From IMG/VR virus record IMGVR_UViG_3300025011_000016: a stretch of DNA of 64,000 nucleotides; one strand, given 5' to 3'. Below are positions 1,506 through 47,169 of this stretch, in pieces. The notes under the pieces were generated by a model. It was not told the origin of the DNA, searched no databases, and was given only the letters and a program-made list of their open reading frames with translations. Numbering within the stretch: the stretch's first letter is position 1; each line of letters opens with the position of its first letter. This DNA is from a virus (lineage: Duplodnaviria > Caudoviricetes). The position numbers were made by a program, and so were the translations under genes.

Positions 1506-1865
1506 ATGGCAAAGAAAGAAAAACCTGAAAAAATTAAATTTGAAATAGTTGAATTTATTGGATCTTTAAAAGAGAGTGATCAGCACGACTGGTGTAAACT
1601 GGTTGCGCGTATTGCCTGGAATGATAAACCACCATCCTTAGATATACGTAGTATGAATTTATCTGATCATAGAGCAGGTAAAGGTATTAGTTTAACTGAT
1701 GAAGAAGTCGACAAATTGATTGATTTATTATTAGAAAATGATTATGGATCATTGGAATTACTTGAGAAAGCTGTAGCTAAAAAGAGGAATCGGTTTACTA
1801 TAACTACAAATAATAATACATATCTTAATACAGATGAGAATTACGTGATCGAAATAAAACAATAG
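1506..1865 (+). CDS. YdbC/PC4-like ssDNA-binding protein
   Basis: IKFEIVEFIG...IAWNDKPPSLDIR...GKGISLTDEE matches the YdbC family pattern. Confidence 0.75.
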   Translation: MAKKEKPEKIKFEIVEFIGSLKESDQHDWCKLVARIAWNDKPPSLDIRSMNLSDHRAGKGISLTDEEVDKLIDLLLENDYGSLELLEKAVAKKRNRFTITTNNNTYLNTDENYVIEIKQ

Positions 1866-1871
1866 GGGCGG

Positions 1872-2972
1872 TTGGTGATTCCCTTGGATATTATCTTTAA
1901 TATGTTTAAAGTCAAATTTAAAAAGCTGGACGAATTAATGGATAAACATTGTTCTCATATTGGTAATACATCTAAGTTTAATATATTTATTAATCTAGAA
2001 TCAGTTATTAATAAGTTATCTAGTTCTAGTATAGATCAATATTTAAAAGTTAAAGAAGACAGATCGTTTGAGTTAATAAGCAATATAATTAATCTAGCTG
2101 CACATTATAGACTCTTCTTCACAAAGAATAAGGTATATTCAAAGGTTTATATTTATACAGGAAATCCATCTACTAAGCATTATAAAAATCATATAGTATT
2201 ACCTGAGTATAGATCTTATTATCAACATAAGTATTCAGGCGATCCAAATAATTTTGTATTAAATTCAGTATTAAACGAATCCATACCCTTCACTAAAATC
2301 ATATTAGAGTACGTGGAGGGTGTATATCTCATTCAAGGTGATGGTATAGAATCATCTCTCATACCTCACATAATAACGAAAGGTTCAGATGAGGAATATA
2401 TTAATTTCATTGTAACTACAGATAAGTACGATTATCAATATGCATGTAAAAACTTCTATATTATTAGACCAAAAAGAGATGATAGTTATGTTATCAGTAA
2501 AGAAAATCTTATTACTGAACTAAAACTTGAAAGTAAAATTGTTAATGATAAGAATATCAATGCTCAATATTATCCATTTATATTATCTATACTAGGAGAT
2601 AAATATCGATCGATTGAGAAATTAAAACGTATAGGTTTATCTACTATCATTAAGATGGTTAATAAAGCTATTAGTATTAATATAATTGGTAAAGATGTTT
2701 ATAACATTAATATTCTTTCAAATATAATAAAGGAAGAGTATAAACAATTACTACTCAATAATTACCAATGTATAGATCTAGATACCCAATTTCAATTATT
2801 AAATATAAAGGATTTATATACTATTACATCACAAGTGATTGATAAATTTGATAATGTATCATTAAAAAGGATAAATGATGAGTACTTTATTAACAACCCA
2901 TTATCTCTGATGGAATTAACAGCCGCTACTAAACTTATTACTAAACGAAGTAAAACAAATATATTTATATAA
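1872..2972 (+). CDS. FEN/T4 RNase H-like 5'-3' exonuclease-fold protein, divergent
   Basis: IVTTDKYDYQ resembles IVSGDKDLLQ; LSILGDKYRSIEKLKRIGLSTIIK resembles the H3TH motif. Confidence 0.5.
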   Translation: MVIPLDIIFNMFKVKFKKLDELMDKHCSHIGNTSKFNIFINLESVINKLSSSSIDQYLKVKEDRSFELISNIINLAAHYRLFFTKNKVYSKVYIYTGNPSTKHYKNHIVLPEYRSYYQHKYSGDPNNFVLNSVLNESIPFTKIILEYVEGVYLIQGDGIESSLIPHIITKGSDEEYINFIVTTDKYDYQYACKNFYIIRPKRDDSYVISKENLITELKLESKIVNDKNINAQYYPFILSILGDKYRSIEKLKRIGLSTIIKMVNKAISINIIGKDVYNINILSNIIKEEYKQLLLNNYQCIDLDTQFQLLNIKDLYTITSQVIDKFDNVSLKRINDEYFINNPLSLMELTAATKLITKRSKTNIFI

Positions 2973-2984
2973 GGAGTGATTTAA

Positions 2985-3218
2985 TTGCTATTGAGTAAGG
3001 TAAGTCTACCTAAACTAAAGGAACGTTCTCTTAAATTACATGATGATTTACTTTTCGATACAGGTTGGTTTAATTGCAGACGAATACGTAAAGAGTTGGC
3101 ACTGATAAGTGATGAAATTGATTATCAAGAGGGTCGTAAGCAATTTGCGAATAGACCTTATAGTAAACCAACTATGCTCAGAGCTGATGAGGTAGTCAAT
3201 TGCCCACCAAGAAAATAA
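2985..3218 (+). CDS. Small hypothetical protein
   Basis: 77-aa ORF with RBS AAGGAG and a TTG start. Confidence 0.5.
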   Translation: MLLSKVSLPKLKERSLKLHDDLLFDTGWFNCRRIRKELALISDEIDYQEGRKQFANRPYSKPTMLRADEVVNCPPRK

Positions 3219-3243
3219 TATATTTGAATGGAAGTGGATTATA

Positions 3244-3602
3244 ATGAATGAATTACATGATGTGGTTTTACTTGATCTAAATACAGACATTAGGTTTACT
3301 AAAGAATTAATTGATATTGCATTGGGTGCCGACCATATATCTGAATTAATGCGCTGTGGATCATGGTTTGGTGAACTCGGAATTGGAAACGACCCGTTGA
3401 TTATTGATAATAAGAGAATTGCTTTTAAGATTCTCAAATATTATTGGATTGGAAATATGCTATGGGCACTATTACTATTCTAAATACCCCTAGTGGTAAA
3501 ATCCTGAGTGATCTCTTTAATACGGTAAAATTTAAACCACAAGGATTTGATGATAAAAGATCCCCGAGAAAGATTCATATAACTAAATTTGTTGCATGTT
3601 AA
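3244..3602 (+). pseudogene. Frameshifted paralog of 3627..3992
   Basis: N-terminal part aligns with the downstream paralog (SWFGEL, IAFKI..YYWI). After a 1-nt deletion near 3463 another frame continues GTITILNTPSGKIL, matching GSIEILDTPKGKIL, to TAA at 3602. Confidence 0.65.
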
Positions 3603-15916: not shown

Positions 15917-16216
15917 TCTAATATGAGTCTCGTTGCATAGTAATATGCAATTGCAACTACTTTAATTGCGGGAAACTCCTTATAGCTTAAACTGATATAA
16001 ATATAAACAAAGTTTAAGATTGGACAATCTGCAGCCAAAGATCTATTTATAGATTTAGGTTCAACGACTAGAACGTAAAGTTCGTAGGGCTCAAGTGAGT
16101 GGGTGAGAATCCCTTAAATCGAAATGGGTAGCCCCAGTATAACAACGTTATAATGGGTGAAGATATAGTCTGTGCTTTAAGGAAACTTAGAGAAATAACT
16201 TAACCGTAAGTCTTAC

Positions 16217-17530
16217 TAATTCATTCCTAATAAAATATTATTATGGGTATAACAAATAATATAAGAAAGGAGGTGAATAAAAAAAATGATTAAGACTTTT
16301 AAAACAAGAATACGACCGACTAAAGAACAAGAAGTATATTTAAATAAATGCTTTGGATATAGACGATTTATATATAATAATACCTTAGAGTATTTTAATA
16401 AGATCCTAGAATTCAATGGTAATATTATTGATAAGGATTTAAAGAAGTTCTTCGATAAATTTGATTTTATTACTCATATATATTCTAAGAAAGAAAAAGA
16501 ACCGGGATTTGAATGGACTAAAGAATATAATAAAACTGTAAAGAATGAAGTGGCTAGTGATTTTAATATAACTGTCAACAAGTTCTTTAAAGATATTAAA
16601 AATAAGAAACGGTGTAAACTTCATTTTAAAAGAAAGATCCATGGTAATGGATCATTCCGAATATACAATAAGAATAAAGGTAACGTTAAAATTATTGACA
16701 AAAACAAATTCTCTTTTATTATTAATAGAGAATATGGTCATATGTCATTGAAAACTTTTGAAGATATAAGTTTCTTATATCAATATGAAATAAAAACAAT
16801 GACTATTAGTATGAAGAATTTTAAATATTATGTATCATTTACATATGAGTTAGATGTCCCAAAGCATACTCATACGAAAAACATAGTGGGTGTAGATCTA
16901 GGAATACTTAATCCGGTAGTTTGTTTTGATGGAAAAGATATCATAAATCCTAAATTCCCAAAGGGAATTATTAAGAAACTAGAGAAGAAAACCGATAAAC
17001 TTTCAACGATAGTTTCTAAAAAGAAGTATGATAAGTACGATCCATCGAAAAACTATATAAAAGCGAGAACCAAGCTTAATGATATTTATATTAAAATAGT
17101 GAATATCAGAATGGATTATATTCAGAAGGTTTCAACCTTCTTAGCTAAGACTTATAGAAACGTAGTAGTCGATGAGTTTAGTTTTAAAGAATTACTTACA
17201 GAATCTGATGGTATTAAGCGTATTAATAGGGGTATTCATAGAGTTGGTGCCTTTACGTTTACACAAGTGTTAAAATATAAATGCTACTTTTACGGTAGCG
17301 AATATATTTTAGCGTTACCTAATACTACTAACACATGCTCTGAATGTAACCATAAACTTAAAACTAAGTTAAAGTTATCTCAAAGAATCTTTAATTGTCC
17401 AATATGCGGGCATATAGATGACAGAGATAATAATGCGGCTATTAATATTTATAAGTCGTTTAAAGGATCTTTATTAACTAACGTAAATAAAGATTTCGCC
17501 GTTGGTCGGACGGTTTAAAGAACCTTAAAC
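16217..17530 (+). mobile_element. IS200/IS605-family tnpB-only element inserted 3' of TTAC inside the intron
   Basis: Deleting 16217-17530 regenerates a perfect 17-bp inverted repeat, AATAACTTAACCGTAAG-T-CTTACGGTTAAGTTATT. No tnpA is present and there is no target duplication. Ends are ambiguous by ~2 nt. Confidence 0.7.
16286..17518 (+). CDS. tnpB: TnpB RNA-guided endonuclease
   Basis: N-terminal HTH (FKTRIRPTKEQ...FIYN), RuvC-I VGVDLG, RuvC-II variant VVVDEF, Zn ribbon CSEC/CPIC, RuvC-III DRDNNAAINI. Confidence 0.9.
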   Translation: MIKTFKTRIRPTKEQEVYLNKCFGYRRFIYNNTLEYFNKILEFNGNIIDKDLKKFFDKFDFITHIYSKKEKEPGFEWTKEYNKTVKNEVASDFNITVNKFFKDIKNKKRCKLHFKRKIHGNGSFRIYNKNKGNVKIIDKNKFSFIINREYGHMSLKTFEDISFLYQYEIKTMTISMKNFKYYVSFTYELDVPKHTHTKNIVGVDLGILNPVVCFDGKDIINPKFPKGIIKKLEKKTDKLSTIVSKKKYDKYDPSKNYIKARTKLNDIYIKIVNIRMDYIQKVSTFLAKTYRNVVVDEFSFKELLTESDGIKRINRGIHRVGAFTFTQVLKYKCYFYGSEYILALPNTTNTCSECNHKLKTKLKLSQRIFNCPICGHIDDRDNNAAINIYKSFKGSLLTNVNKDFAVGRTV

Positions 17531-36600: not shown

Positions 36601-37392
36601 ATGTTATTATTATTTAAAGAGAGTGAACGAGGTCTATTTTCTAAAATCAACAATCGGGGTAAAATCGTTAAACCGGCAACTAATTCAGGTATAACTAAAC
36701 CTGGCTATGCCTTAGTAGATAAACTAGATGAGAAGGAAAGGACTATTTTTGCATCCGGAAATAGTTTAGTTTTCGATCCATTACCTGTTATTGACGAGAA
36801 ATTTATCATAGAGACTTTTAAGTTCCATTCTCAGGGGCATATTGTAAATAAGATTCTTCTGGCTGATGGAATAACTGAGGCTATACGATTTACAGGGAAA
36901 TCCGAAGTTATTGGATTCGTTAATAATGAAATGTTAACCCTCGATTATACTGATGAATCTACTCAATATAAAGTAATCGGCGACATAACAGATCAATACG
37001 AAATCATCTATGATTCAATAGTTCCGTATCTGAATAACTACTACTATCAATCGGTTGATATTGATGACTTTAAGTTTACACTATCTAAACTTGCGCCCAG
37101 TATTATTCATTCCGACTATTCGATACTTATCCCCTGTAATATATATGGGGGACTGCATTATAGTATTGGAAAATGGATGTTTCCTGTTTGTATCGATTCA
37201 AACAAAGTTAATATCTTAGCATTGACTAATTTATCTGAAATTTTAAAAGAAATCAAAATTCATAATACTATGATCCTGAATACCTGGAAAAAGTATGGTT
37301 TCGATATATGTAATAAAAATATGCGTATATTTTCTGACATACTAAACCGGTTAAAAATACTCTCTGGAATTCAAGAATTAAAGGAGAAGTGA
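36601..37392 (+). CDS. Hypothetical protein
   Basis: ATG 36601 has RBS GAGGAG and an early motif at 36542-36551, so it is preferred over the TTG at 36520. Confidence 0.65.
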   Translation: MLLLFKESERGLFSKINNRGKIVKPATNSGITKPGYALVDKLDEKERTIFASGNSLVFDPLPVIDEKFIIETFKFHSQGHIVNKILLADGITEAIRFTGKSEVIGFVNNEMLTLDYTDESTQYKVIGDITDQYEIIYDSIVPYLNNYYYQSVDIDDFKFTLSKLAPSIIHSDYSILIPCNIYGGLHYSIGKWMFPVCIDSNKVNILALTNLSEILKEIKIHNTMILNTWKKYGFDICNKNMRIFSDILNRLKILSGIQELKEK

Positions 37393-37399
37393 TAATGAA

Positions 37400-37831
37400 A
37401 TGAAATTAATTAAATTTGTTAAAGAATGTACTCAAGAGGATGTAGTCAAATACTTCGTGGAACGAAACGATGGTAAATTTGACTATATTAAATGTAATGT
37501 ATCCAAAGAAGGAGTTGTAAAGAAAAGTAAATATCTTGCTGAAGGATTAAGCCAGTCTAGTGTTGGTATCGAAATAAGACACGGGCTTTTAAACCGAGGT
37601 TATACTGAAATTATATCAGCTAATATGACTGGTGATGCGTCGATGTTACTTGGACTATGTAATGTCCCTCATATTAATATGAAACCAGAATATTTCCTTC
37701 CTGAGGTGCTTATATCTTCTGTGAAAAAGAAATATACACCGGTTATTCATTTAACTTTACCTTCAAAAACGTTGGAGAAAAACTCTATACCATGTCATCC
37801 AAAAGAAATGAAAAATGAGGAGGATATTTAA
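37400..37831 (+). CDS. Hypothetical protein
   Basis: 143-aa ORF with RBS AAGGAG. Confidence 0.65.
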   Translation: MKLIKFVKECTQEDVVKYFVERNDGKFDYIKCNVSKEGVVKKSKYLAEGLSQSSVGIEIRHGLLNRGYTEIISANMTGDASMLLGLCNVPHINMKPEYFLPEVLISSVKKKYTPVIHLTLPSKTLEKNSIPCHPKEMKNEEDI

Positions 37832-38168
37832 AATGAAACTAATCCCAGCTTATGATTGGACTATTGTTGAAAATGTATTACTCGAAGAAGATGCCCGAAC
37901 TAATTATATAAAGAACACTACGGTTGCAACTAGTTTAAAAGAAGTTAGAAAAGTCTTAAAGAATTATTCAAGAAATAATATCTCAATGCATACTAGAGGA
38001 TTTATAGACCTCTATTTAGATAATATGTCGTTATTATCTAAAACCCAAATTGTTAATGATGGAAGTTACAGGAATTTCGTATTGGGTGTGCGGCCCGATA
38101 GAATTCAAGAAACTGGTTGCATTAAATCAGGATTTCCTATGTATAACTATCAAGAAGTATTAACCTAG
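37815..38168 (+). CDS. Hypothetical protein, paralog of 38339..38863, possibly frameshift-truncated
   Basis: Shares KLIPA and QI(V/C)NDGSY with the next gene; the +1 frame stays open to 38316. Confidence 0.55.
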   Translation: MRRIFKMKLIPAYDWTIVENVLLEEDARTNYIKNTTVATSLKEVRKVLKNYSRNNISMHTRGFIDLYLDNMSLLSKTQIVNDGSYRNFVLGVRPDRIQETGCIKSGFPMYNYQEVLT

Positions 38169-40931: not shown

Positions 40932-41657
40932 ATCTCCAATCCCGAGCACGTCATTATACTTAATATAAAATTCAAATAAAACTCCTTGGTCCACTACAGT
41001 ACCTTTAACTTTACCATCCTTAGATTCGATTTTTTTAGTGGGTTCGTTCATCATAATGCCACATTTATATATAGAATCCCCTTTATCATATTTATTGAGA
41101 ACATTTTTCTTCTTATTTATTCTAGTATAATAATCAGATACAATTTTTCTCAATGAGGGACTTAACTCTTCTAGTTCAACCGTAGTGTAGATCTTGATAT
41201 CTACAATCTCACCAGAATACTTAGTTTTAATAGGCGTTTTCCCTAATGATTTAATATCTTCTCGTAATTCCTTACCAATAGAATCTAAAAATTTATTTAA
41301 TGAGTTGTCATCAAAAGAAACTTCGAACCGGATAAGTTCATCTGAAACTTGAACTTTCTGCCCTATCTCAACCATATAGTCAACATTCGCATTTAAACCT
41401 AGAGCAACAGTTTTTTCCATAACAATGTCTGCCGCCATTTCTCTACCCAATTTCTTTGTTATAAAAGCAGAATCTTCAAAGGTAGAATATGTTGATAAAC
41501 ATGCAACTTTTTGTAATGATCCAATATTAAATCTATTACCAGTTATTTTACTATCAGTAAAGAATTTACTATCCGATGCAAGTATATCTTTTTGTTTAAA
41601 TTTTTGACCTTTAACTAGATTACATGTTAATTTATTTGATAGATAGAAACCCCCAGC
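40932..41657 (-). CDS. RNA polymerase beta-like subunit, exon 5
   Basis: AGGFYLSNKL...EDSAFIT...LGIGD; 726 nt; double-psi barrel region of beta. Confidence 0.85.
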
Positions 41658-41838
41658 CATTATATTCATATAGATTATAAACCTATACAGTTCTCAAATG
41701 AACTTCCCTAATGTTAATTAGGATACTAGACTATATCTTCATCTTATAAAGATGATCCCTATTTCGATATATAAATATATCTACGAGTTCTCACTCTAGT
41801 CGTTGAACCTGTCTTATAGTAATATAGAAGATTATAAG

Positions 41839-41848
41839 TATATATTAT
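41839..41848 (+). promoter_or_regulatory. Early-type promoter motif TATATATTAT inside intron 4, antisense to the RNAP gene
   Basis: Exact match to the motif found upstream of other non-structural genes. Confidence 0.55.
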
Positions 41849-41886
41849 ATTAATAGATAATAAAATAAAGGAGCCAAATAATTACT

Positions 41887-41949
41887 ATGTTCCACGTTAT
41901 TATATTCTTTATGTTGCTTCGTATTCTCAGTCGTTTAGGTAAAAAATAA
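41887..41949 (+). CDS. 20-aa hydrophobic peptide MFHVIIFFMLLRILSRLGKK (not in the ORF track)
   Basis: RBS AAAGGAG upstream; first ORF after the early motif. Confidence 0.4.
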   Translation: MFHVIIFFMLLRILSRLGKK

Positions 41950-41966
41950 TTAGGGAGTGTTTTACT

Positions 41967-42332
41967 ATGATTACACCAAAGGATATTTTAATGAACTTAA
42001 TTCAAACTGCACAAGACGATGAATTATTTCAAGAAAATGCCATTGAGTTAACCAACAGATTTTTCTATAATCGATTTCTTAGTGTCTTAAAACAATATAA
42101 CGGTGATGAGGCTAAGGCATATGACGCCTTCATCGTAAAAAAGAATCTATATCTCTTCAATTTATATATTGAGGAGTTCATTGATTTACAGCGTTCCACT
42201 TATCAATCTATGTATCCATCACAATGGACTGAGAATCCATATAATATGGTTTTACGTAAAGAACTCAGACAGATTCATCATTATCTATGTGCCGACCCAA
42301 GAATACTTGACATGCCATCATATCACGGATAA
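41967..42332 (+). CDS. Hypothetical 121-aa protein antisense within intron 4
   Basis: RBS AGGGAG, ATG start, normal composition, own terminator at ~42348-42377; no HNH, GIY-YIG or LAGLIDADG motif. Confidence 0.7.
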   Translation: MITPKDILMNLIQTAQDDELFQENAIELTNRFFYNRFLSVLKQYNGDEAKAYDAFIVKKNLYLFNLYIEEFIDLQRSTYQSMYPSQWTENPYNMVLRKELRQIHHYLCADPRILDMPSYHG

Positions 42333-42347
42333 TCTATTAATACTATA

Positions 42348-42377
42348 TGGGTGATTTTATATCACCTCTCTTTTTTT
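42348..42377 (+). terminator. Intrinsic terminator of the antisense cassette
   Basis: GGTGAT-tttat-ATCACC followed by TCTCTTTTTTT. Confidence 0.6.
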
Positions 42378-42492
42378 ACTATAAGACTTGGCTGCGGATT
42401 GTCCAATCTTTATTATATAAAGCTCTAAGGAGTTTCCCGACAATTAAAGGATATTCTTTATACATTCACACATATAAAGGGCATTTTAGTTT

Positions 42493-42724
42493 ACCATTTT
42501 TAACTACTTTAGTTGAAGTATCAATAGCTTGTATAGAATTGTCTTTATATCTAATAATAGTTAAACCATTAGCATCATTAACTTCTTCTACAATACCATC
42601 TTGTTTCGCCACAATAACGAAGTCATTTGATAAATGATATTGAATAACTTGTTCCGCACCATTAGATATTAAAACAGGTGATGATTTTACAATAGGTATG
42701 ATATGCTTCGATTGTTTACTGGCC
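42493..42724 (-). CDS. RNA polymerase beta-like subunit, exon 4
   Basis: (M)ASKQSKHIIP...TKVVKNG; 232 nt; corresponds to beta MQRQAVP region. Confidence 0.8.
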
Positions 42725-43032: not shown

Positions 43033-43807
43033 CGTAACCATTCATGTTTCCATAAATGACAGACTATATCTTCATCTACATAGTTACATGTTTAGATGTC
43101 CTCCATTTCGGCTTATAAATAAACCTACGAGTTTACACTCTAGTCGTTGAACCTTTCTCTATAAAAAATAGTAATATCATACTCTGAATTTATATATCAT
43201 ATACTTGAATATAATAAAATAATGGAGTTGAATTGATATGATATGATAATAAATGATATCCATAATATAACAGACTTCGATCAGTATATAGAATTCTATA
43301 CTCAATTAACTAATACATATGGTAAACTAAATCATTATATCTCCAAAATATTTGAAAGGCGTGGAAATATCAGTATTGACCATCTACCAATTAAATCACA
43401 TAAACTTAAACTCGGTACTCTTTTATATCATGTATCCGAAACTAAATATGATTTTTTAAAATCATCATTTAAAAGTAGAGATGAATTTTTATACTCTGAA
43501 AATAGAATATATTTTACTACAGACATCGAATCATTAGAGCCACATTTTAAAAAGTATCGATATGTCTATATGTATGTAGTTACAGGTAATGAAAATACAT
43601 TTATCGACTATGAGTATAATAATAACAAATCATTCTATATATCTAATGATAAACCATTTGAAATTAAAGAGGTTCAACTTCTTTAATTTTTTTATAGAGA
43701 CTTGGCTGCGGATTGCCCAATCTTTATATTATAAAGCTCTAAGGGGTTCCCCGACAATTAAAAGGATTCTTATTATGTATTTCTACATAAAGGGACAATA
43801 GTAATTT
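43033..43807 (-). ncRNA. Group I intron 2 (775 nt) with an antisense ART-like gene in P6a
   Basis: P1 GGGAU/GUCCC; P10 of 7 bp; P9.0 GU/AC; P6a arms at 43157-43168 and 43688-43699. Confidence 0.85.
43243..43686 (+). CDS. ADP-ribosyltransferase-fold (Arr-like) protein, antisense within intron 2
   Basis: LLYHVS...NRIYFTT...YVYMYVVTG...FID...SFYISNDKPFEI parallels Arr FYHGT...NHIYFT...VYIVEPTG...D...SYRS..P. RBS TGGAG; early-like motif TATATATCAT at 43191-43200. Confidence 0.55.
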   Translation: MIINDIHNITDFDQYIEFYTQLTNTYGKLNHYISKIFERRGNISIDHLPIKSHKLKLGTLLYHVSETKYDFLKSSFKSRDEFLYSENRIYFTTDIESLEPHFKKYRYVYMYVVTGNENTFIDYEYNNNKSFYISNDKPFEIKEVQLL

Positions 43808-44091: not shown

Positions 44092-44374
44092 CAAATAGTT
44101 AACATTATTTGTTAGATAATGTAAAGATGTTATCTTTCTCTATTTTTCAATAGATGTTCAGACTATATCATCATCTCCATTGAGATGCTTCCCGTTTCAG
44201 TTTAAGGAATTAACTTCCACTCACTTGAGCCCTATAAGTTAGTCGTTGAACCTTATTCTATCATATAGAATATTGGATGCAGATTGTCCAATCTTTATAT
44301 TATAAAGCACTAAGGGGTTTCCTGCAATTAAAGAAGTTTGCATTATATATCACTACATAATGGAACTACGAAAA
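44092..44374 (-). ncRNA. Group I intron 1 (283 nt, ORF-less)
   Basis: P1 GAAU/GUUC; core motifs present; omega-G 44092. Confidence 0.85.
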
Positions 44375-47024
44375 ATTCAACTATGGGATTTAGTGTAGAA
44401 TAATCTTCAATCGTCTGACCCATTAATAATTCTTTAGTTACGTAATCCCTGGGAAGTGAAATACGGACTGGATTATTGTTGTTAGCAGTTGCTTTATACC
44501 TACTATACTGCTGAGCAATACCTTGATATAAAATTGCACTTACTACCTCATTGGAACGAATCCTATAAAGACTCATATCCTTTTCATTAATATATGAATT
44601 ATCAGATAATAAAGCATTGGCAAATAACATTAAACTTACAAAATCTGTAGGATAATTTAAGTCTTCTAGAACTTCTTTGGTGATTGGATCTATTAAAAAC
44701 TCATAAAAGTTATCAAAAGCGTTACCGATTATCTTAGTATTAAACATGGTATCAAATATTGTTAGATACGTTTCCTTATCATCAAAATCTGTATATTCGA
44801 ATGCTTTAGTAGGTACATCGACAAAGGCATTCATTAATAAAGAATTCTCAAAGGGATTCACATCATATACAAGATACCCATCTGAAAATTGAATTGAATT
44901 TTCATTATCAGCAAGTTTTGGTCGTTTATCAACAAATTGATGTTTGATATTGGCTTTCTTCAGCACTGAGGTTAAACCCTCTACATACCCTAATAATAAT
45001 ACTAATGGTACATTTTTTTTCATAATATACGCTCTTGTGTAAGAAAACTTTTTGCCAGCTTTAGTATCTTCAAATTCTTTGAATGCTTCACCTGAAGATA
45101 CTGACATTATAAAATCAACAATATCGAAATTACCCATACGTTGAGTACTATAGTTCATAATGATAGGACTACGAGGATTTATGAAAAATCCAATACAGAA
45201 CTCATCTTCTTTAAGTTTAGTTTTATATTTAACTAATAAATCATGAACTTCGTTTTGATCAAAATAGAACTCACAATTTGATATTTTAATATATGAGATA
45301 TATTTCGATAATTCATCATATTCCAATAGAGATTTGTACTTAGAGTTATTATTGGCATTATTACCATATTTGATAATTACACCAGATCTGGGTATAGATA
45401 TGACTTTCTTAAATCTTTCTATTTTGGATGAAACTTTGTTGCCATATCTCATAATAAAGATTTTTTTATAGTTACTACAAACCTGAACCTTATCGGGCCC
45501 AATCTTTATTACAGGTTTAGAGAACAATTGCTTATTGATAATCTTCTTATTACCATTTAGATATAAGAATTTATCATCAATAAACTTAGGCATATCAAAC
45601 TTTAATTTATGTCGGACTCTATTTGAATCTTCAAGTTCAACCGAAAAAGTCTCTCTGTAATTTAATTCATCAGAGCTATCTTCAACGTCTATCTTTCTAA
45701 CAAATACAGGAAGGCCCTTATCATTTAAACATGTTAATGTATTGGCAACATCAGCATGATACAGATTTTCATTATACGACTTTTCAAAGAAAGGATATTT
45801 AATTCCAGTCATATTTTTGTTAATAGTATTAACATTACTCGTCACATCAATTGACGGAATAAAAGATTCTTTTAATTTAATATTTCTGGCTTCATCTAAA
45901 GTCATTTTACCCAACATAATATTCTTTTGATTTTCTCTTAACTCAATATCTCTTTTTAATGACTGAGGAGTTCTACCAACTTTCTTTTCCTGATTAAGTG
46001 TATAGATTTCCTTTAATAACTTCTCGTCATTAACTAATACATTCTCCAATTTATCTTTTAATTCCTTTGTAGTTTGGGTTTTGGCTTCAGGTGAATTAAC
46101 TAACTCATCTATTCTAGAAGTAATAGCTTCCTGAAATTCTTCATCGTTATCTCCTTCAGAAACTTCTTCATCTTCATCTTGAGGATCATCTGGATGATTC
46201 CCAGTAAAACCGAATGTATATAAGAATTTACCCAGAAGATCATCTCTAATTTCTTGAACTTCAATTTGTCTATCTAGGTCTTTATCGTTATCGGTAATAT
46301 TCATATCAGGTGCAATCTTAATTAATTCTCTTCTTAATACCGTATAAGATTTATCATCACATAATGATGGATTGACTCGTATCATAGTATTTCCACCATA
46401 AATTAATATATTGATATCTCCAAGTTCTTGAAACTTCTTAAAGAACTTATGCATAGCATAATAGATAATAAATACAGGATTATTTAATACCATCTTTTGT
46501 TTCATTGACGCTCTAACATTCTTTACCCAACTATCGGCATCGATACATATAGTTTTAAGATTATACTCATCATATTTAGAATCCACCAATATAGACTTTA
46601 TTAAATCCATATAAGCTAATATCTTAACATTAAATTTTATCTTTACTCCATATTTAAAAAAGATCTCATTATATTTAGATAAATCCACATAAACATTCTT
46701 ACCATCAATACTATCTAACTGAGTCGGTGTATTAATAAATGATAATTTAGAATTTACTTCAGAATAGATTAACTGTCTCTCCTTATTAACTAATGATCTA
46801 TATGTTTTATTGAATAATTTACCTTTATATGATTGATCGATAAAATAATAATGGAATTTATTGTTATGATATATTAGAGGATTATTAATAAGGTTAATAG
46901 ATGATTGTAAAGTATTGTTATTGATAAGAACTAGGCTGTGTAATGTGGGTGTTTTGGGATTTACATCTAAAACCGTTTTCTGTTTATATAATTTTAGATG
47001 CGGTGTACTAGAAACACTATTCAA
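44375..47024 (-). CDS. Multisubunit RNA polymerase beta-like subunit, exon 1 (probably virion RNAP, phiKZ gp178-like; spliced length 1476 aa)
   Basis: Exon lengths 2650+284+20+232+726+134+385 = 4431 nt, one open frame with beta motifs. Late promoter and size suggest the virion enzyme. Confidence 0.8.
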
Positions 47025-47070: not shown

Positions 47071-47169
47071 GATAAATCGTAAAATAATGATTGTAGAGTA
47101 GAAAGTAATAATGTTTACAACTATATATTATATACTAGTAAAGAAATAAAAATTAGGAGGAATTTATTA

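Follow-up and report, generated by a model that had tools for sequence, protein, structure and literature searches.

An intron in a phage RNA polymerase gene was found to hold what looked like a complete gene with its own promoter and terminator on the opposite strand. This raised the question of what such a unit encodes and how it can share a locus with the gene around it. It was studied in a stretch of viral DNA of 64,000 nucleotides, which is called the window here. The source was an uncultured jumbo phage of groundwater metagenomes that is distantly AR9-like, and contigs carrying the 121-aa protein of the unit reached 272 kb. The window was AT-rich, with a GC content of about 30%. A search of GenBank phages for DNA nearly identical to the window found none, and a scan of IMG/VR found no relatives. 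An 893-aa ORF on the minus strand (44343-47024) showed approximately 30% amino acid identity to the virion-RNAP beta subunit of the Bacillus phages AR9 and PBS1 and their relatives. The coding sequence of this beta gene was split by six group I introns. Rfam gave three complete and several split group I introns on the minus strand between 39350 and 44384, and nhmmer with profiles of the intron halves found six copies in the beta gene and a seventh elsewhere in the window.

The unit was located in intron 4, which has a length of 835 nt. The limits of this intron were set by tblastn of the beta protein of the intron-less Listeria phage LPJP1 onto the window. The 5' exon ended with ...AAU GGU at 42493 (...VVKNG), the 3' exon started from GCU at 41657 (AGGFYL...), and the last base of the intron was the G at 41658. 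Predicted splicing at this NG|A junction would give NG|AGGF, which aligned with ...NSGGGF of intron-less LPJP1, so that a conserved beta motif and the reading frame were restored. Group I introns are characterized by a P3-P9 core with the Q and R elements and P7, by a 5' exon U paired to G in P1, and by a terminal intron G. In intron 4, the 5' exon end ...GGU can pair with GCCCUUU (P1). RF00028 matched in two halves, 42364-42442 (P3 to P6) and 41706-41837 (P6 to P9), with 26.6 and 26.9 bits. Both were under the gathering score of 50 because an insert of 553 nt splits the match (one half corresponds to model positions 60-138). Intron 4 is somewhat longer than its Rfam core. The halves aligned to sister introns that scored 83-93 bits. 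With a catalytic core, matching exon and intron ends and a frame that predicted splicing would keep intact, intron 4 is a group I intron.

The first-pass annotation had placed the unit between two 12-bp arms of the P6a helix and all of its elements on the strand opposite to the intron. Both points held when the sequence was read directly, as the elements of the cassette lay on the plus strand and the RF00028 halves on the minus strand. The arms GTCTTATAGTAA and TTACTATAAGAC formed a perfect 12-bp inverted repeat, and they paired in the minimum-free-energy fold of the full-length intron. Covariation was also observed, with one double change of U:A to C:G between intron 4 and the orthologous introns of L025 and L028 (L-numbers denote loci or contigs of related phages). 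Since the arms form the P6a helix, the 553 nt between them are an insert in the loop L6a. In the sister introns, P6a was short and empty. The coordinates are collected in the table.

Table. Features of intron 4 and its cassette in the window, with two ORFs of the related contig L024.
Feature	Position	Strand	Basis or remarks
Group I intron 4, virion-RNAP beta	41658..42492	-	835 nt; LPJP1 tblastn, RF00028 halves, nhmmer
P6a 3' strand in RNA, UUACUAUAAGAC (arm GTCTTATAGTAA)	41811..41822	-	direct reading, whole-intron MFE fold, covariation
Putative early (virion-RNAP type) promoter core TATATATTAT	41839..41848	+	enrichment, AR9 consensus, conservation
20-aa ORF	41887..41949	+	AAGGAG 41868-41873, 13-nt spacer; lineage-specific, coding doubtful
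121-aa gene	41967..42332	+	GGGAG 41953-41957, 9-nt spacer, ATG 41967
Predicted intrinsic terminator	42349..42377	+	7-bp hairpin and U-run ending at the P6a base
P6a 5' strand in RNA, GUCUUAUAGUAA (arm TTACTATAAGAC)	42376..42387	-	direct reading, whole-intron MFE fold, covariation
L024, NUMOD4-matching ORF	1590-2345	-	
L024, cassette ORF (upstream beta intron)	2986-3330	+	

The exact promoter motif that had been described between the arms was recovered as TATATATTAT. The window contained 11 copies of it where 2.7 were expected, and none of 100 shuffles reached this number. Every one of these copies faced a downstream ORF of its own strand, with a Shine-Dalgarno sequence following at 20-35 nt, and several came after the terminator of the preceding gene. 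The early promoter of AR9, AAATATATATTAT-(6N)-G(+1), was defined by dRNA-seq and primer extension and is served by the injected virion polymerase without protein synthesis (PMC5312081). The motif of the window was the exact 10-nt core of this promoter, with a purine at +7/+8, and transcription was predicted to start at the purine 41855/41856. Two deviations from the AR9 consensus were found: the upstream bases were AAG instead of AAA, and the +1 base was A, with G one base later. The AR9 polymerase is reportedly sensitive to single deviations at some promoter positions (PMC5312081). By analogy, the cassette probably carries an AR9-type early promoter, an assignment that is well founded but indirect. 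Three further early promoters, at 47122, 49600 and 51052 (+), preceded paralogous genes whose leaders were nearly identical. In each case the distance to the ATG was exactly 48 nt, as it is for the 20-aa ORF.

A terminator of hairpin-T type had been proposed at the other end of the cassette, and it was present. The hairpin 42349-42367, with three GC pairs in a 7-bp stem, was followed by CTCTTTTTTT and had a free energy of -8.4 kcal/mol. On the strand of the gene, the stem was followed by the U-run CUCUUUUUUU, as in intrinsic terminators of the hairpin-U type, and analogues were found in four other cassettes. Because there is no U-run after the hairpin on the intron strand, the terminator is one-directional, and late transcription should therefore pass it.

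The 121-aa ORF and its ribosome-binding site were found where the first reading had put them, and the ORF belonged to a conserved family. An exhaustive search of cluster representatives gave 17 family representatives at E<=1e-3. The closest relative was P0002, with 63% identity to the protein of the window (P0001). R36, D53, E69 and R101 were invariant across the family, which shared the block KQYN.DE.KAYDEF...YIEE. The dN/dS value was 0.19 between the 121-aa protein and P0002, and it was 0.16-0.23 among three intron-borne copies with unsaturated dS. The 121-aa gene is real and under purifying selection. An AlphaFold2 model on the family alignment (pLDDT 87.5, pTM 0.79) consisted of four long and two short helices without strands, and the protein was mildly acidic, with 16 D/E versus 12 K/R. 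The homology and structure search that had been proposed as a check thus gave a conserved family and an all-helical model, but it did not give a known family or fold.

Profile searches of Pfam, PHROG, PADLOC and PDB sequences with P0001 gave no match. Across the family members, Pfam showed no shared family, and every match at E<=1 was confined to a single member. Only a chance match (E 0.03) was obtained by tblastn against phages. The fold search gave no match at E<=0.001 in PDB and BFVD and none better than E 1 in the AFDB clusters. In the wide VIA search, the top Z was 8.6 (CV_1783, YqeY N-domain and bromodomain-like bundles), a range that helical bundles reach by chance, and the role of a binder rather than an enzyme is therefore a weak proposal. 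In Atlas and AFDB, a weak resemblance (TM 0.35-0.40 by query) to the SAM-like core-binding domains of integrases, which bind DNA, is only a lead. The product is a real protein of an unnamed phage family, with an all-alpha fold as predicted by the model.

Two enzyme classes were considered as candidates. The catalytic folds of HNH, GIY-YIG, LAGLIDADG and PD-(D/E)xK nucleases contain beta strands. The motifs of the known homing endonuclease families (HNH, GIY-YIG, LAGLIDADG, His-Cys, PD-(D/E)xK and EDxHD) were absent, and there was no nuclease among the structural matches in PDB, BFVD, AFDB, VIA and Atlas. A predicted model and absent matches speak less strongly against a nuclease of a new type. 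The case that would have undone the first reading, a degenerate fragment of a homing endonuclease, was not borne out, as the protein had no Pfam, PHROG or PADLOC family and a confident all-helical model. HEPN RNases carry an Rx4-6H motif where their last core helix begins. In the 121-aa family, only about half of the members had an H at +4 from R101 (Rx3H), whereas the others had N, Q or L in its place, and the HEPN class was rejected on this motif. Neither the profile searches nor the fold searches gave a HEPN family or structure.

The cassette was found in other phages as well. On contigs of 99.6 kb and 250 kb (L025/L011 and L028/L014), the L6a of the orthologous NG|A intron held a homologue of approximately 45% identity in antisense orientation, with the exact TATATATTAT and a hairpin-U terminator abutting the P6a arm. 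The order R element, P6a arm, TATATATTAT, gene, hairpin-U, P6a arm and Q element was the same in these two and in L024 and L027. The exact promoter core was kept in the cassettes of L017, L024, L025, L027 and L028. The terminators of L024, L025, L027 and L028 had the same position and a different sequence. Promoter and gene thus recurred in five other intron-borne copies, which strengthened the earlier claim of a self-contained antisense unit of early type in the P6a loop.

On the 233 kb contig L024, the cassette with the same P6a arms was located in a different beta intron, which falls between LPJP1 residues 1034 and 1043. The L6a of its NG|A intron held a sense ORF matching NUMOD4 that was 33% identical to the NUMOD4/HNH endonuclease of the window. 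The intron core flanking the L024 cassette belonged to a different paralogue, and a swap of the cassette via the conserved Q/R flanks was therefore suggested. Comparison of L024 with the window suggests that cargo may be exchanged between sister introns. In L027 (2381-5309), two members of the intron family interrupted a gene for a family-B DNA polymerase near motif A. One of these introns carried the cassette and was nearly identical to the RNAP NG|A intron of L025 except in P1, and the whole intron has apparently moved together with the cassette. L017, from an unrelated data set, had a divergent intron, of which the 3' half with P7 and R elements was present together with the promoter, a homologue of 142 aa and a further ORF. 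This second ORF of L017, with 76 aa (896-1126, +), overlapped the family member and had no Pfam match. Rfam gave nothing at E<=0.05 on L024, L027, L017 and L029, and intron halves were found in L024 and L027 by nhmmer with the intron-half profiles. Related phages share the cassette at several intron sites, namely two in RNAP beta, one in DNA polymerase and one in the divergent intron.

Other members of the family were free-standing. The distant members L018, L019, L029 and L030 lay in ordinary arrays of small genes without an intron signal. The gene for P0002 closed an early operon that is syntenic with window 37165-38165. It faced the 3' end of the RNAP gene in convergent orientation, a few kb from the position of the window's copy. 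Maximum-likelihood analysis grouped P0002 with the intron-borne copies in one clade (90/84) and placed it as sister to the protein of the window (99/95). The tree, with only a midpoint root, would fit one capture and one escape. In the free-standing homologue L001, a good Shine-Dalgarno sequence was followed by an ATG at 2121 (region 2076-2130) that was one base out of frame relative to the conserved protein. The called start was a TTG without a Shine-Dalgarno sequence, and an assembly error or an unusual start is possible.

In an alternative reading, the 121-aa protein would serve the movement of the intron or cassette. It would be all-helical and of a type not described before, either a homing nuclease or a DNA-binding protein that directs recombination, and it would explain the cassette at three different intron sites. 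Its distribution is homing-like, with copies in L6a of RNAP beta introns (two sites) and of DNA polymerase introns and with free-standing copies. In L024, the equivalent loops of two sister introns hold the cassette in one case and the NUMOD4-matching, HNH-related ORF in the other. The invariant charged residues and the faint likeness to integrase core-binding domains, seen in two libraries, point in the same direction. However, none of the 18 members showed a motif of nucleases or matched a nuclease family, and the confident model lacked the beta strands of the HNH, GIY-YIG, LAGLIDADG and PD-(D/E)xK folds. The mild acidity of the protein also speaks against it. All sampled copies were intact and under purifying selection, with no cycling through decay. 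Movement can also be explained without the 121-aa protein, by HNH endonucleases in sister introns and by the homology of the conserved intron cores. A mobility role is therefore unlikely, although it is the alternative that survives best. So far, L6a has been seen to hold the 121-aa antisense cassette, sense HNH nucleases or, in intron 2, another antisense cassette that is unrelated to the first. In a broader and equally doubtful proposal, accessory genes would travel in the intron family, whose L6a would be a site for exchangeable cargo, and the 121-aa protein would be an all-helical mobility or competition factor that helps to colonise essential genes. If true, such a factor would be a new class of intron-associated protein beside homing endonucleases and maturases.

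The 20-aa ORF that precedes the main gene had been read as the first gene of a mini-operon and, as a speculation, as a small membrane-active peptide. The ORF and its ribosome-binding site AAGGAG were located as described; the function proposed for them was not supported. In every homologous cassette, the main gene started 45-51 nt after the promoter, and there is therefore no room for a peptide there. The window had about 80 extra nt, and the ORF was confined to this phage and to this phage-specific insert. It was absent from all other cassettes and from the free-standing relatives, and a similarity search with the ORF and the segment of about 80 nt found nothing. The ancestral position of the Shine-Dalgarno sequence now lies 13 nt before the 20-aa ORF. 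Probably, the ORF is a by-product of the 80-nt insertion downstream of the ancestral ribosome-binding site, as the comparison of cassettes suggests, and it may be translated. As a type I toxin-like membrane peptide, it was rejected, being unconserved and having a hydrophobic run of only about 8-12 residues, broken by R12 and below a standard membrane span.

A related explanation is that the two ORFs form a toxin or exclusion module, in which the hydrophobic, basic 20-aa peptide is the membrane effector and the 121-aa protein its partner or regulator. Short ATG ORFs were common in the window, at 1.2 per kb per strand, and a Shine-Dalgarno-like word was found upstream of only 7 of 158, so that an AAGGAG at 13 nt is in favor of a module. 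The ATG at 48 nt from the promoter start, as in three other early genes, and the stop codon 17 nt before the next ATG also fit. However, the Shine-Dalgarno sequence occupies the ancestral position of the main gene and is therefore not independent evidence. Eight other contigs of the same phage were 100% identical over the cassette, and selection on the ORF is therefore unreadable from polymorphism. With a peptide that has no counterpart in any homologous cassette or free-standing relative, no similarity anywhere and a short hydrophobic run, a two-component module is quite improbable. Least probable of all is that the functional product is an antisense RNA or the act of transcription, tuning late RNAP splicing or expression around an incidental ORF, because this explains the conserved promoter and terminator positions and an early transcript that would be complementary over its full length to the L6a loop of the late precursor, for approximately 520 nt, but not the strong purifying selection on the protein, the homologues that are ordinary free-standing genes without an intron, or the terminator that confines the RNA to a loop dispensable for catalysis, which is short and empty in sister introns.

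The reading that we prefer, and regard as likely, is that an early accessory gene is carried as cargo, in opposite orientation, in L6a of an intron in the late virion-RNAP beta gene. The anatomy of the cassette, its conservation, the purifying selection, the fold class and the several intron sites are established here. Early transcription of the cassette would follow by analogy with AR9, and we infer splicing of intron 4, termination, the start site and the timing alike. Early in infection, the injected virion RNA polymerase would read TATATATTAT in the loop and start near 41855, giving an mRNA of approximately 520 nt. The hairpin-U terminator would end this mRNA precisely at the P6a base, and no RNA antisense to the ribozyme core or the exons would therefore be made. 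Translation would give the acidic helical-bundle protein of 121 aa. Its role is most likely the binding of a macromolecule in host take-over, anti-defence or phage competition, rather than that of a nuclease, although this proposal is weak. Late in infection, the host gene would be transcribed through the cassette, the 12-bp P6a helix would close off the 553-nt insert, and the ribozyme would fold. Splicing would then join ...NG|AGGF..., and the cassette, lying within the P6a loop, would therefore leave the late mRNA together with the intron. The early and late timing would separate the two convergent transcriptions. The cassette is probably an old passenger of the intron family that moves with the whole intron into new genes and is swapped between sister introns via the conserved flanks.

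Known systems share single features of this arrangement. The annotation of AR9 gives g189 as a join of six pieces, and one of its introns contains the HNH gene g190 with an early promoter of its own. By dRNA-seq, g190 was shown to be early, whereas g189 is late (PMC5312081). The likeness to the window includes a homologous beta subunit (approximately 30% amino acid identity), several group I introns and an intron-internal early promoter of the same consensus. In contrast, the product of g190 is an HNH homing endonuclease, and g190 and g189 share one strand, whereas the cassette of the window is antisense, belongs to no family of nucleases, ends in a terminator of its own and is found again in several introns. 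In T4, intron ORFs lie in peripheral group I loops and have their own middle or late promoters in a host unit of another temporal class (PMC2988022). They differ in that they are sense-strand GIY-YIG and HNH nucleases controlled by RNA hairpins and autorepression, and the order is reversed, with an early host and late cargo.

Antisense cargo is known from eukaryotes. The gene for I-DirII lies antisense in a group I intron of Didymium nuclear rDNA and has its own promoter (PMC3073962), and antisense HEGs were described in L2066 introns (PMC9548176). I-DirII resembles the window as an antisense intron-borne gene with its own promoter, but it is eukaryotic, with a Pol II promoter, a spliceosomal intron, poly(A) and a His-Cys homing endonuclease as cargo. 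The hexacoral mitochondrial ND5-717 intron holds ND1/ND3 and more in P8, with one transcribed antisense ORF (PMC6545197). Here, too, a group I intron loop houses ordinary genes other than endonucleases. The difference is that this intron is organellar, uses the P8 site and carries mostly sense housekeeping genes without a dedicated cassette of promoter and terminator. PhiPA3 gp210 is an intron endonuclease that nicks the vRNAP gene of a rival and benefits its phage, and is thus not purely selfish (PMC11620839; reviewed in PMC12908238). It is likewise phage-beneficial cargo in an intron of a jumbo-phage RNAP subunit; unlike gp210, the protein of the window gave no indication of nuclease activity.

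In the reviews PMC3984707 and PMC12908238, the cargo described for phage group I introns consists of homing endonucleases only. The words antisense, opposite and orientation were absent from the 2014 review of bacterial group I introns. Promoters of another class within introns (T4, AR9), antisense HEGs (rDNA) and non-nuclease cargo (mitochondria) are already known separately. The combination of a phage, an antisense gene under selection that is not a nuclease, a promoter and a terminator belonging to that gene, and repeated occurrence in different introns and genes was not found in these two reviews. These results suggested that phage introns may ferry ordinary accessory genes. Introns could be safe insertion sites, and perhaps vehicles, for such genes, because the cargo is spliced from the host message and imprecise deletion is impossible. 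The early and late programmes would let convergent genes share one locus. For the annotation of jumbo phages, antisense genes are to be expected inside the introns of polymerase genes.

Bacillus phage vB_BpuM-BpSp, a cultured relative, gives an example of this. The group I introns of its homologous beta gene hold the opposite-strand ORFs gp246, gp247 and gp249, two of which lie in an intron at the same NG|G-type site. They differ from the cassette in that the proteins, which had no Pfam match, are unrelated to the 121-aa protein; kinship was rejected for gp249, with an hhalign probability of 2.9%. In the record, such genes are filed as unexplained small genes between 'split' polymerase genes. 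The three ORFs (L020, 6849-7169, 9009-9347 and 9406-10326, minus strand) are called 'hypothetical' and lie antisense in the introns, and the GenBank record lists the exons as separate genes with the introns unmentioned.

Two other copies of the intron family in the window were also observed. Intron 2 of the beta gene, which is split, contained a second antisense ORF of 147 aa (43243-43686, +). This ORF had no Pfam match and no exact TATATATTAT upstream, and its kinship with the 121-aa protein was rejected, as a comparison showed no relation. The seventh intron copy was located at 15926-16194 (+) between two long ORFs and scored under the Rfam gathering score. It was directly followed by a gene for a 410-aa TnpB/OrfB_IS605 (Cas12f-like) protein at 16286-17515 (+).
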